DNA of 64,000 nt, taken from the IMG/VR virus record IMGVR_UViG_3300042887_005798; one strand, 5' to 3'. Both the position numbers and the translations under genes were made by a program. How positions within the stretch are numbered: position 1 is the stretch's first letter; each line of letters opens with the position of its first letter. The notes below the pieces were generated by a model. The model saw nothing but the letters and a program-made list of their open reading frames with translations. It did not search any database and was not told where the DNA came from. Below are positions 6,821 through 34,129 of this stretch, piece by piece. Source of the stretch: a virus (taxonomy: Duplodnaviria > Heunggongvirae > Uroviricota > Caudoviricetes).

Positions 6821-7440
6821 TTTTTATCCTTTAAAATAAGATCGCATCCTAAATTTTTAACTACCTCATATTGTTTGTCAAGAACTTCAAAAAGTTTCTT
6901 TGAATCTGCTTCATAATTCACTTCTACAGAAATGATTTTTGGATTGAAATTTTCTAAAATATTTTTTAATATTTTAGATTCACCACCTTCAGTATCAATT
7001 GACAAATAATCAATTGGAGAATTTATAGGAAGGAAATGATCAAGCGTGAACATTTCAACTTCAATTCCAATTTGTTCTCCATTTGATTCATAAGTTTCTT
7101 TGTTTATTCTAAACATATGATTTGCATCATAATAATCTAATACGCCACTGAGCATATCTGCGTTTCCAACTACTTTCAAGAATTGTACTTTTTTATTTTC
7201 ATGTCCAATTGCACAGTTAAAGCATTTAGAGTGAGATCTATTCGATATTAATTTTTGAAAAGCGTCATCTACTGGCTCAAAACAAAAACCTGTCCAACCT
7301 AGTTTTTCAAAAAAGTAACTATTAGAAAGTTTTATTCCATCATAAGCTCCTATATCTACAAATACTCCGTCCGTTTTGTTTTTGAAGAAAGTTTCGTAAA
7401 TATATTGGTCTTGACCGTATTGACTGTAGAATTCGCTCAT
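6814..7440 (-). CDS. FkbM family methyltransferase
   Basis: YSQYGQD, FVDIGAYDG, SNSYFFE, CFEP, LSIDTEGGE; start Met at 7440 or 7443. Confidence 0.9.
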   Translation of the reverse strand: MSEFYSQYGQDQYIYETFFKNKTDGVFVDIGAYDGIKLSNSYFFEKLGWTGFCFEPVDDAFQKLISNRSHSKCFNCAIGHENKKVQFLKVVGNADMLSGVLDYYDANHMFRINKETYESNGEQIGIEVEMFTLDHFLPINSPIDYLSIDTEGGESKILKNILENFNPKIISVEVNYEADSKKLFEVLDKQYEVVKNLGCDLILKDKKW

Positions 7441-7447
7441 CATGTAA

Positions 7448-7457
7448 ATTGTACAAT
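7448..7457. promoter_or_regulatory. Palindromic bidirectional -10 element ATTGTACAAT
   Basis: Perfect palindrome between divergent starts: 6 nt to ATG 7464 (+), 7 nt to ATG 7440 (-). Confidence 0.75.
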
Positions 7458-7463
7458 ATGTAA

Positions 7464-8174
7464 ATGGATTTTACTTTTGGAATTTGTGTGACTAAAGAAA
7501 ATAAACACTTACATCCAATTATTTATAATCAAATTAAAAATCAGAAAATACCAAATAAACAAATAATATTCATTGGAGATATCTATGATAATTTGAACAA
7601 AGATTGGTTATGTGAAAACCTCTATGATGATTATATTCATTTTGACGAAACACAAAAAACTGGATGGATCACAAAGAAAAAAAATTTGATTGTAGAAAAC
7701 GCAAAATATGAAAATATAGTTTTAATGCATGATTATATTGTTTTAGAAAATGGCTGGTATGAAGGATTTTTAAAGTTTGGTAATGACTTTCAAGTGTGCA
7801 TGAACCGTGTACACAATCTCGATGGAAAAAGAAATATAGATTGGTTGGTTTATTATCAAGATTATCAGTTGCCAAATGCCGAACAACTCTTACCTTATGA
7901 TCAAGAGTTTTCAAAAATTATGTACATTCCTGGGTTTTATTGGGTGGCAAAAAAAAATGTAATGCAAGAATTTCCGCTTAATGAAAATTTGATATGGGGT
8001 GAGGCAGAAGATGTTGAATGGTCAAAAAGAGTGAGGAGTAAATATAAATTTACTATGAATTCCCATTCTGCTGTTAAATTTCTTAAACAAAAAGAATATG
8101 TTTTAAATGAAATGAGCAAAGAATCGTTAAATTTGGTAAAAAACTTTTATAATAATTACTTCGGTGAACAATGA
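7464..8174 (+). CDS. Putative GT-A fold glycosyltransferase (paralog of 20349..21035)
   Basis: MDFTFGIC start, WITKKKN..ENIVLMHDYI (DxD-like), EDVEW motif. Confidence 0.65.
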   Translation: MDFTFGICVTKENKHLHPIIYNQIKNQKIPNKQIIFIGDIYDNLNKDWLCENLYDDYIHFDETQKTGWITKKKNLIVENAKYENIVLMHDYIVLENGWYEGFLKFGNDFQVCMNRVHNLDGKRNIDWLVYYQDYQLPNAEQLLPYDQEFSKIMYIPGFYWVAKKNVMQEFPLNENLIWGEAEDVEWSKRVRSKYKFTMNSHSAVKFLKQKEYVLNEMSKESLNLVKNFYNNYFGEQ

Positions 8175-8800
8175 ATCATATAATCAATAATTATTTTGAA
8201 AACGTATTTGTAATTGCTCACCCTGAGTCTCAAAGATTTCAAGCATTTAATGAAAGATGGGAAGGTTTAAATTATAGATTGTGTCAATTTGTAATGCAAG
8301 GTTTGAATTGTGTTTCTAAAGATGGCTTAGCCGTACATAATCTACCAAGTATACCTAATGATATTCCTTTGCTTGATCCATTAAGTGATGGTCAAGTTGC
8401 TTGTGCTTTGGCACACATGTTGATTTATCAAATAATTGCTAATGAAAATTTAAGTAATTGTTTGATTTTAGAGGACGACTCTGTTTTTAATACATTATCA
8501 AATTTAGAAATTGCTTTAAATTCTGATTATGATATTTTGGCATTGTTCACAGCTGATTGTGATTTGTACACTACTCCGCATTTAGCAAGTCCGTACACTG
8601 ATAAATATACAAGAGCTGGAACTTCAGCTTATGTTATCAGAACGTCTAATATAGCTTGTGATCTTTATGAATCGCAAGTTAAAAAAATGAATACAGCGGA
8701 TGGTGTAATCATGAGGAGTGATAAAAAGATTTATGCTGTTTATCCTCCAGTGTGTTCTTGTGATGACTCACCTTCAATTATAGTTAATGGGTTTTATTAA
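8171..8800 (+). CDS. Glycosyltransferase family 25-like
   Basis: GQVACALAHM..CLILEDDS..GTSAYVI motifs. Confidence 0.75.
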   Translation: MNHIINNYFENVFVIAHPESQRFQAFNERWEGLNYRLCQFVMQGLNCVSKDGLAVHNLPSIPNDIPLLDPLSDGQVACALAHMLIYQIIANENLSNCLILEDDSVFNTLSNLEIALNSDYDILALFTADCDLYTTPHLASPYTDKYTRAGTSAYVIRTSNIACDLYESQVKKMNTADGVIMRSDKKIYAVYPPVCSCDDSPSIIVNGFY

Positions 8801-8802
8801 AT

Positions 8803-31636: not shown

Positions 31637-32156
31637 ACTTATATTGCAGAACTTGTTTTTTTACATCTGCCCACTCGTGTATATACGATGATTCGTTACC
31701 AGAAATTTTTCTCAAAACAGAAAAATCTTTTACTTGTTCCCATGTAAGCTTGTTTTGCGCCCAATCTGCTAACTCAACAGGTTTTTCTAATAACTTAAAT
31801 TTATCATGTTTTTCTTCTGGCTCATAAAGCATTTTCAAATTAGCTATATCATGTAAAAAGATAGTCCATTCTGAACCATCACTGAACTTGAAATAAATTT
31901 CTTGTAAAGCTAATTCATGCTGTTTTGATTGAAAAGCAATAAATTTTTCTAACCATTTGTCATCGCCAAATTCATAAACAAACTTTTTATTTTCTCTCAA
32001 AAATAATGAACATAACTGTTTGTATTTATTGAAGGCAACTTTAAATATTTTTTCTTTACCCAAGACAATCGCTCTTGTGCTTAAGAAATTTGCCATGTGA
32101 CATGCAACTACATCTTTGCTTAGAGTAGATATTTTGTTGCCCATTTTAACTTTCAT
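31620..32156 (-). CDS. Hypothetical protein
   Basis: 178 aa; CGTATATT plus 6 nt before ATG. Confidence 0.55.
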   Translation of the reverse strand: MKVKMGNKISTLSKDVVACHMANFLSTRAIVLGKEKIFKVAFNKYKQLCSLFLRENKKFVYEFGDDKWLEKFIAFQSKQHELALQEIYFKFSDGSEWTIFLHDIANLKMLYEPEEKHDKFKLLEKPVELADWAQNKLTWEQVKDFSVLRKISGNESSYIHEWADVKKQVLQYKYEAED

Positions 32157-32170
32157 ATCATTAATATACG

Positions 32171-33790
32171 TTAGAACATGCCTTCAGACACTAAAACCTT
32201 TTCGCTTTTATCTATAATTGGTGCAATAAGAGTTTCAGTAGTTAAAACCAAACTTGCAATACTCACTGCGTTTGTCAAGGCTGTTTTAGTAACTTTCGCT
32301 GGATCAATCACTCCTCTTTCAAATAAATCACAAACATCACCATACTTTGCGTCAAATCCCACAGAACCTTCAGATTCTAATACCTTTCTAGCAAAAACAT
32401 CTGGTGAAAAATCTCCATTAGTACAAATTTGCCTGAAAGGTGCTTTCATGGCGTGTGCAAGAATTCTTAGCCCTTTAACTTCGTCTTCGTCCCTTTCGTC
32501 AACAGTGGTTCTATCTTCAAGTAAATCTGAAATTCTGAGCAAACAACTTCCTCCACCAGGGACTATACCTTCATCAATTGCGGCTCTTGTGGCGTTTAAT
32601 GCATCTTCATAGCGATATCTTTTTTCTTTAAGTTCAGTTTCTGTAGAGGCGCCAATTTTAATTAAACCAACACCACCATTTAATTTACCCAATCTTTCGC
32701 TTAATTTTTCACGATTATAATCTGACTCTTCCCCTGCAAGCATAGCCTTAAGTAATTCTACTCTTTCACCCCTAACAACAGGATCGCTTTTACCTTCCAA
32801 GACTGTCGTGCTGTCTTTTCCAACAACAACACGCTTAGCAAATCCAAAAAAGCTATCGTCAATTTCATCATATTTATGTCCAATGCTTTCATTGAACACT
32901 TTTCCGCCGACCATAGCACAAATATCTTGGATCATTTCTTTCTTTTGCTCCCCAAATCCTGGAGTTTTTGTTGCAACCCAATGATACCCACCTCTGGTTT
33001 TATTAATAACAAAACCGTTAATTGCATCTTTAGTAAAACCTTCTGCAATAACAAGGATGGGTTTTTTTAATTTTGCGGCTTTTTCGAGAGCTTGAATCAA
33101 TACTTCAAAGCGTTCAATTTGACCATCAAACATCAAAATGGTAACGTCTCTATAATCTACTAAATTTTTAGCCACATCAGAAATAAGGTAAGGCGAAATA
33201 AAACCTTGGTTGAAAGAAAAACCATCAACCATGCTAAAGTAAGTTTCTCTTTCTTTAGATTCTTCAAGTGTAATGATTCCATCTGAGCCTACAGCTTCTA
33301 TAGCATCCGCTACAACAACCCCCACTTCTTGCTCATTACCTGAAATAGCAGCAACATACTCAATTTCTTGCCTATCACTCACTGGTTTTGCACAATTTTC
33401 TATCAATGCAAGAGCTGTTGTTAATCCTTTGTCAATTCCTCTCTTTATGCCTAGAGGATTTCCACCAGCAGCGACATATTTCAATCCCTCTTTTACAATT
33501 GCTTGTGCAAGAACAGTTGCAGTTGTTGTCCCATCGCCAGCAATATCATTTGTTTTCATACTTACTTGTTTGCACAACTGCGCCCCTAAATTTTCGTAGG
33601 GTTCTTCCAAATCTACAGCTTTTGCTACAGTTACACCATCTTTAGTTATAATTGGTGCTCCATGTTCACTGAAAATTACAACATTTCTGCCTCTTGGACC
33701 CAAGGTAACCCTAACAGCGTCTGCTACCATATTTACACCTATTTCTAACTTTTTTCTAGCTTCTTCAGCAAATAATAAACTAACTGGCAT
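32171..33790 (-). CDS. groEL: Chaperonin GroEL (group I)
   Basis: [56 protein letters not shown]; no GGM tail. Confidence 0.97.
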
Positions 33791-33795
33791 ACTTT

Positions 33796-33809
33796 ATTTT
33801 GTACAAAAT
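33796..33809. promoter_or_regulatory. Palindromic bidirectional element ATTTTGTACAAAAT
   Basis: Perfect 14-bp palindrome centred at 33802.5, exactly midway between ATG 33790 (-) and ATG 33815 (+). Confidence 0.75.
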
Positions 33810-33814
33810 TTTTT

Positions 33815-34129
33815 ATGAATGTTTTTGATAAATGGAAATTAAAACAAATTTTAACGCTAGAAGAAGGTTGCGACATTTTAAATGAGCTATATGGAGGGGC
33901 AAAAAAACATTTTGTTTTTGGCTCAAAGGTAAGAATAGATAAAAAATTCTTGGATGTTTATGAAAAATTCAAAAATGGAGACGATACGAATTGTGTGTTA
34001 AAATTTTCAAACATCGTCACACAAAAACCATTTGTGTCGCCAATATTGTTTCCCGAAGAAAATCCCACGCACACAATCTTAACAGAAGAAATTAATCTCT
34101 ATGTGTATGAAAAAAATGACCTTTACTAA
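33815..34129 (+). CDS. Hypothetical protein
   Basis: 104 aa ORF divergent from groEL. Confidence 0.5.
   Translation: MNVFDKWKLKQILTLEEGCDILNELYGGAKKHFVFGSKVRIDKKFLDVYEKFKNGDDTNCVLKFSNIVTQKPFVSPILFPEENPTHTILTEEINLYVYEKNDLY

Follow-up and report, generated by a model that had tools for sequence, protein, structure and literature searches.

A palindrome between divergent genes of a huge freshwater phage is likely two overlapping copies of a one-way promoter box for leaderless genes

In the virus record IMGVR_UViG_3300042887_005798, a stretch of 64,000 nucleotides (nt) that was analysed as a whole and is called the window below, the 8-base palindrome TTGTACAA lies between the start codons of two divergent genes at five places. 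What does one short palindrome do for two genes that are only 20-24 nt apart? The original prediction, made from the letters of the window, took it for an ultra-compact bidirectional promoter of two leaderless genes. We consider it likely that each TTGTACAA consists of two overlapping, opposite-strand copies of a general promoter box of the phage and that both messages are leaderless. The window is part of a huge uncultivated AT-rich freshwater phage.

The palindrome occurs exactly five times in the window, at positions 7449, 10218, 18379, 21043, and 33799. Its raw count is not enriched (5 observed versus 3.1 expected from shuffles of the window). All five copies are located within the 20-24-nt gaps between divergent genes; the divergent gaps total 329 nt, or 0.5% of the window, and the placement of all five copies there has a P of about 4e-12. 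A chance origin of the siting was rejected on these placement statistics. The five junctions are listed below with the palindrome in its extended form and, for four of them, the spacing on the two sides and the start-to-start distance in base pairs (bp).

7448-7457: palindrome ATTGTACAAT between an FkbM-type methyltransferase gene (minus strand, start 7440) and a gene of 236 amino acids (aa) (plus strand, start 7464).
10217-10226: palindrome GTTGTACAAC between a TylF-type methyltransferase gene (minus strand, start 10210) and a HAD/cupin gene (plus strand, start 10233); 6/6 nt, 23 bp.
18377-18388: palindrome AATTGTACAATT between a 221-aa DUF8361-like gene (minus strand, start 18371) and a DegT aminotransferase gene (plus strand, GTG start 18394); 6/6 nt, 23 bp.
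21041-21052: palindrome AATTGTACAATT between a 228-aa gene (minus strand, start 21035) and a 262-aa gene (plus strand, start 21058); 6/6 nt, 23 bp.
33796-33809: palindrome ATTTTGTACAAAAT between groEL (minus strand, start 33790) and a 104-aa gene (plus strand, start 33815); 7/7 nt, 25 bp.

The shared layout of start codon, spacer, palindrome, spacer, and start codon agrees with the original prediction, both in the sequences and in the extended palindromes. The perfect 8-bp palindrome extends to 10-14 bp at all five sites. Each strand of the five junctions reads TGTACAA(T/C/A), and the hexamer TACAAN ends 6-7 nt before the start codon, with spacings of 6/6 at three junctions, 7/6 at 7440/7464, and 7/7 at 33790/33815. 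The 7440 start is the second ATG of an ATGATG pair, from which its spacing is counted, and at this junction the TGTACAAT boxes of the two strands overlap within ATTGTACAAT. A sugar-biosynthesis (glycan) island contains four of the five junctions; the remaining one is that of groEL. Searching the literature for TTGTACAA gave matches to cloning primers only.

The half-motif also occurs alone, which the original prediction had missed. The pattern TGTA[CT]AAT has 18 matches on both strands of the window: a long open reading frame (ORF) starts 6-8 nt after 13 of them, one is 29 nt upstream of a start, and four are intragenic. Single half-motifs precede co-directional genes with starts at 22555, 27538, 53769, and 57693. 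A T precedes the TG in 13 of the 17 aligned box sites, giving the box tTGTA(C/T)AAT. The boxes outside the five palindromes are as follows.

12752-12777: two separate boxes of a divergent pair, TGTACAAT (minus strand, 12752-12759, 6 nt to ATG 12745) and TGTATAAT (plus strand, 12770-12777, 8 nt to ATG 12786); start-to-start distance 41 bp.
4729-4743: two adjacent, weaker boxes of a divergent pair, TGTAAAAT (minus strand, 6 nt to ATG 4722) and AGTATAAT (plus strand, 6 nt to ATG 4750).
22540-22547: one-way box TGTATAAT, plus strand, 7 nt before ATG 22555 of a 300-aa epimerase gene.
26527-26534: one-way box TGTATAAT, minus strand, 6 nt before ATG 26520.
27523-27530: one-way box TGTATAAT, plus strand, 7 nt before ATG 27538 of a 292-aa gene.
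53777-53784: one-way box TGTATAAT, minus strand, 7 nt before GTG 53769.
57679-57686: one-way box TGTACAAT, plus strand, 6 nt before ATG 57693.
42481-42488: box TGTATAAT, minus strand, 29 nt upstream of ATG 42451, with a GGAGG Shine-Dalgarno site in between.

The box at 42481 is the only case in which the box is clearly apart from the ribosome-binding position. The box at 22540-22547 overlaps the stop codon of the preceding gene and is a near copy of the promoter at 21041-21052. In one relative (L007), the ortholog of the 53769 gene has TGTACAAA 6 nt before an ATG.

The box is a general feature of the window genes. A TAnnnT element is present 5-8 nt from the start in 24 of the 73 window genes, compared with 10% of 2265 control ATGs (p = 1e-7). 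Shine-Dalgarno sites were found at 12 of the 73 genes, none of which is among the 24 with a TAnnnT box (p = 0.005), so the claimed lack of a Shine-Dalgarno site at box-bearing genes was borne out. The original prediction had also placed any −35 element in the first codons of the opposite gene; no conserved −35 element was found in the aligned box sites, and canonical −35/−10 pairs are no commoner in the glycan island than chance would give (118 versus 117.5 expected).

We then compared the junctions with those of related phages. One syntenic relative, L003, came from a metagenome scan, and eight more loci came from protein searches and contig look-ups: L004-L007 via groEL (61-80% identity) and L127-L130 via the 221-aa protein (61-86% identity). 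Counts were made over 243 kilobases (kb), comprising this phage and the loci of eight relatives. This set contains 31 copies of TTGTACAA; 24 have starts 6-8 nt from both hexamers, two have such a start on one side, and five have none. The siting at junctions rather than in genes, which the original prediction had proposed as a check, thus holds for all five window copies and for 24 of 31 in the larger set. Outside junctions, the first six sequences have 2 copies where about 6.3 would be expected (Poisson p = 0.05), at most a marginal intragenic depletion. TGTAYAAN boxes followed by a long ORF number 80, with spacings of 6 nt (55 boxes), 7 nt (22), and 8 nt (3) and with ATG (72) or GTG (8) as the start codon; the TA of these boxes is invariant by the search definition. 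Divergent pairs with a box on both sides number 30, of which 24 are in the register that shares the TA. Their start-to-start distances are 23 bp (14 pairs), 24 bp (7), 25 bp (3), and, for separate boxes, 31-41 bp (6).

The architecture is kept at the orthologous junctions of relatives, where spacers change around a constant core. At the groEL junction, the TTGTACAA core is invariant in L004-L007 and the spacers of 6-8 nt diverge; the same holds for the junction of a 291-aa gene with a DUF6065 gene in relatives, where the diverged spacers are again 6-8 nt. The palindrome at 21041-21052 is kept with altered spacers in L003, L127, L129, and L130. The DegT junction has a palindrome in the window and in L127, whereas in L003 the two boxes are separate and keep 6-7 nt to their respective starts, and a junction at a 508-512-aa gene always has separate boxes. 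Since the junctions vary between the palindrome and separate boxes, the conserved unit is the one-way box with its distance to the start, not the palindrome. The original prediction had described a special and previously undescribed cassette in which one palindrome serves two genes. That description was not supported: the functional unit is the one-way box used throughout the phage, relatives use two separate boxes at orthologous junctions, and a 23-bp spacing has already been published.

The layout is also no general by-product of AT-rich viral DNA, since an IMG/VR scan for CAT-N6-TTGTACAA-N6-ATG, used as a negative control, gave at least 119 matches, and among the matches listed none had ORFs of at least 60 aa on both sides. 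No relatives turned up in IMG/VR scans that used groEL and the 512-aa protein as queries, and for two proteins of the window, a collection of phage records had no close relative.

The overlap leaves a mark on the middle of the hexamer. The third hexamer base is C in all 50 overlapped boxes, whereas the stand-alone boxes, with the consensus hexamer TATAAT, have T in 22 and C in 8 of 30. Because the G before the TA complements the middle base of the opposite hexamer, the overlapped form reads TACAAT and not TATAAT. The one-way TTGTATAA box accordingly differs from the two-way palindrome by one transition. The 292-aa gene with its window start at 27538 provides an example. Its orthologs in L004-L007 and L130 face the DUF6065 gene, and their box is palindromic; the window has no DUF6065 gene at 27523, and the box is TGTATAAT, in which the opposite-strand G is lost. 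This comparison indicates that a one-way box is one transition from a two-way palindrome. In the relatives, the DUF6065 gene separates ClpS from the 291-aa gene and runs on the other strand (L004 15416-17456; window 27222-27538). Window 27222-27521 encodes a homolog of ClpS, with 53% identity to a protein from a relative, itself a match to Pfam PF02617.

The geometry also bears on gene starts. The original prediction had moved four starts away from those of the program-made ORF track, and these (10233, 18371, 18394, and 21058) fit the motif geometry at the orthologous junctions of relatives; for 18371 and 18394, one relative also starts at the corresponding position. Box geometry suggests three further corrections, to 12745 (ORF track 12760), 26520 (26541), and 27538 (27511).

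We propose the following mechanism, in which we infer the transcription starts, the identity of the polymerase and sigma factor, and leaderless translation from the sequence. The box would be a −10-type hexamer, TAYAAT, with a TG directly upstream and without a −35 element. Two such boxes on opposite strands would overlap through their TA, each hexamer's TA being paired with that of its partner. An RNA polymerase holoenzyme whose sigma factor belongs to the sigma-70 family, either host or phage-encoded, would bind in either of two orientations, melt the box, and begin transcription about 7 nt downstream of the hexamer. A start at the A or G of the start codon would yield a leaderless mRNA both ways, without the need for a Shine-Dalgarno site. 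The original prediction that a −10-like box on each strand stands at the distance that would put +1 on the start codon agrees with the spacing of 6-7 nt, and the 6/6 spacing puts the presumed starts 23 bp apart. Both transcripts of each junction are probably leaderless.

Several points weigh against this proposal. The starts are placed by reading the DNA, and an upstream start with a leader is possible. The TG abuts the hexamer (TGTAYAAT) and is therefore at −14/−13, not at the canonical extended −10 position of −15/−14. The last hexamer base is T in 43 of the 80 boxes, A in 30, and C in 7. Such a loose last base is odd for a primary sigma factor, for which T at −7 is normally near-invariant, and a different reader may be involved. 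Eight of the 80 starts are GTG, and GTG is poorly used on leaderless mRNAs in E. coli. Leaderless translation would also depend on the capacity of the host.

The displaced TG and the variable last base suggest that the reader may be unusual, possibly specific to the phage. It is possible, although we hold this only tentatively, that the box is read by a sigma factor of the phage or by a host holoenzyme in remodelled form, either of which would require G at −13 but accept any base at −7. If so, the promoter class would be private to a clade of huge freshwater phages. A single T-to-C change would make a one-way promoter two-way, so that genes inserted on the opposite strand would be expressed at once, and the repeated boxes would form seams for the gain, loss, and inversion of glycan-gene cassettes.

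Could the palindrome be an operator at which a dimeric regulator, from the phage or the host, controls both divergent genes together, with the promoter look being secondary or the two functions coexisting? Its perfect and extended symmetry at all five window sites and its strictly conserved core in relatives are in line with this, and a regulator could coexist with a promoter. However, the half-motif stands alone at the same distance from co-directional starts, the DegT junction of L003 swaps the palindrome for two separate boxes, and the symmetry outside the 8-mer is lost in relatives (e.g., TTTGTACAAT, GTTGTACAAT, and ATTGTACAAA). The half-sites are adjacent, with 8 bp in total; half-sites 4 bp apart are unsuited to helix-turn-helix dimers, which bind successive major grooves. 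Moreover, no regulator gene, and no sigma factor gene, was found among the 30 window proteins, a subset, that were scanned against Pfam. We regard an operator as improbable.

Even less credible is a translation signal of a non-Shine-Dalgarno type, in which transcripts with leaders would come from inside the opposite gene and UGUAYAAU at 6-7 nt before the AUG would recruit ribosomes. The box does take the Shine-Dalgarno position at a tight spacing to the start codon, and the mutual exclusion of the two would be expected from such a signal. However, TGTATAAT, the consensus of the boxes that stand alone, matches the −10 consensus exactly with TG added, no enrichment was seen for any other promoter-like signal, and strand symmetry has no rationale for an RNA signal. 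The box at 42481 is followed by a normal GGAGG site and is thus not itself ribosome-binding there. The box sequence is also not complementary to the conserved 3′ end of 16S rRNA.

We give the least credence to the box being mainly a short homology for cassette gain, loss, or inversion in the glycan island with incidental promoter activity: a two-gene block missing from L003 (21058-22546) is flanked by near-identical boxes, the DUF6065 gene is present or absent exactly at the box, and a 42-bp perfect inverted duplication in L128 spans both boxes and both start codons, but 8-12 bp of homology is very short, and expression, not recombination, accounts for the strict 6-8-nt distance and for the conservation of stable junctions, that at groEL among them. 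The indels at boxes look like a side effect of repeated promoters.

These rearranged sites have some further features. The boundaries of the 21058-22546 block are AATTGTACAATT (21041-21052) and AATTGTATAATT (22538-22549), and the block looks like a case of cassette gain or loss at promoter repeats. At L003 8915-8953, an epimerase gene, whose product is 63% identical to that of window 22555-23457, is directly at a palindromic promoter. In L128, the 42-bp perfect palindrome (16603-16644) takes in a pair of separate TGTATAAA boxes together with their 6-nt spacers and the ATGAAT starts of the two genes, and looks like an inverted duplication of the whole promoter-start unit.

Beyond the boxes, the window encodes tail-spike and virion-protein families, groEL, PhoH, and a ClpB-like ATPase, the nearest matches of which include phages of 490-595 kb. 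The glycan island holds the FkbM and TylF methyltransferases, the DegT aminotransferase, and the cupin/HAD protein. Two paralogous genes (7464-8174 and 20349-21035), which are 48% identical and both begin M-D/E-F-T-F-G-I-C, are each directly at a palindromic promoter, and neither has a Pfam family match. Convergent genes of the island overlap at their 3′ ends by 8-29 nt (5370-5385, 9668-9675, 17706-17723, 20349-20377, and 26089-26100). These overlaps leave no space for terminators, terminator-like hairpins are not enriched (11 versus 6.8 expected), and the convergent transcripts probably run antisense into the neighbour gene.

Mobile elements were observed in the relatives. In L006 (15053) and L130 (280), a LAGLIDADG-type gene is inserted between co-directional genes, and its ATG follows TTGTACAA by 11 nt; here a homing-endonuclease gene may use the box with a short leader. 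The groEL proteins of several relatives (P0013, P0015, P0016, P0018, P0020, and P0022) have 861-867 aa with LAGLIDADG or homing-endonuclease domains and are thus intein-bearing; the window groEL has no intein. A TnpB/Cas12f-like gene (OrfB_IS605) is inserted within the glycan island of L129 (17482-18747).

If each palindrome is two overlapping promoter boxes, a simple promoter rule would apply to a clade of uncultivated huge phages, namely tTGTAYAAT, 6-7 nt, and the start codon, which corrects several gene starts. It would also illustrate how a very compact genome may drive back-to-back operons from about 23 bp without a leader, Shine-Dalgarno site, or −35 element. Such an element could be of use as a minimal two-way expression part.

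Several known systems share parts of the proposed layout. The late promoters of T4, TATAAATA, are read by gp55, and a single 8-bp element of the −10 region suffices without a −35 element; T4 late mRNAs have leaders. Unlike in T4, the phage box has a different sequence, and neither of the T4 late motifs TATAAATA and GTATAAAT is positioned before genes in the window. Thermus phages are closer. The parts of the reports considered here describe P23-45's middle and late promoters as an extended −10 class (PMC3950348) and the middle and late mRNAs of phiYS40 as mostly leaderless (PMC3594737). As in these phages, the promoter here is a −10-type element without a −35, with a TG as in P23-45; a TG one base nearer to the hexamer and palindromic pairing are not reported in those same parts (PMC3594737; PMC3950348). 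By analogy, the Thermus phages suggest a model in which a phage may favour its own genes once −35 recognition is blocked.

Leaderless expression from an ORF-adjacent −10 box has been demonstrated experimentally in Deinococcus (PMC12340547; PMC4007540). The likeness to Deinococcus-Thermus extends to a TANNNT box a few bp before ATG or GTG, with no need for a Shine-Dalgarno site or a −35 element, to a specific box-ORF spacing, and to the large share of genes concerned (PMC12340547; PMC4007540). In contrast to those boxes, the phage box varies in its last base while its TG is fixed, and the phage is AT-rich and huge, with a freshwater host. Term searches of the texts of PMC12340547 and PMC4007540 gave no mention of a bidirectional arrangement.

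The bidirectional arrangement is known from E. coli, where symmetric bidirectional promoters are a class defined by mapped divergent starts 7-25 bp apart (Warman et al.; 10.1101/2020.01.31.928960; PMC12825309). The commonest distance is 18 bp, 10 and 23 bp are also common, and the optimal distance from the −10 element to the start is 7 bp (PMC12825309; 10.1101/2020.01.31.928960). By arithmetic, in the 23-bp class the −12 of one hexamer pairs with the −11 of the other and the TA is shared, as here. The phage junctions resemble these promoters in that opposite-strand −10 elements overlap by inherent symmetry, with starts about 23 bp apart (here measured as start-codon distances), and RNA polymerase would likewise bind in one orientation at a time. 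Unlike in E. coli, the presumed starts are the start codons on both sides, which would leave neither mRNA with a leader. With a TG abutting each hexamer, the 8-bp palindrome is perfect, whereas the E. coli promoters are only pseudo-symmetric, and one exact sequence is reused many times and conserved across the phage clade. In E. coli, the 18-bp class dominates.

Most likely, the palindrome is thus a neat new form of mechanisms that are already known and does not represent a novel one. What is new here is that both transcripts are probably leaderless, that the G directly before the TA makes the palindrome perfect and leaves C as the only possible middle base of each hexamer, and that the overlapped register is precise, with one exact 8-mer conserved clade-wide. 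Compared with the known systems, the junctions would represent a natural and highly stereotyped symmetric bidirectional promoter joined with leaderless expression on both sides.

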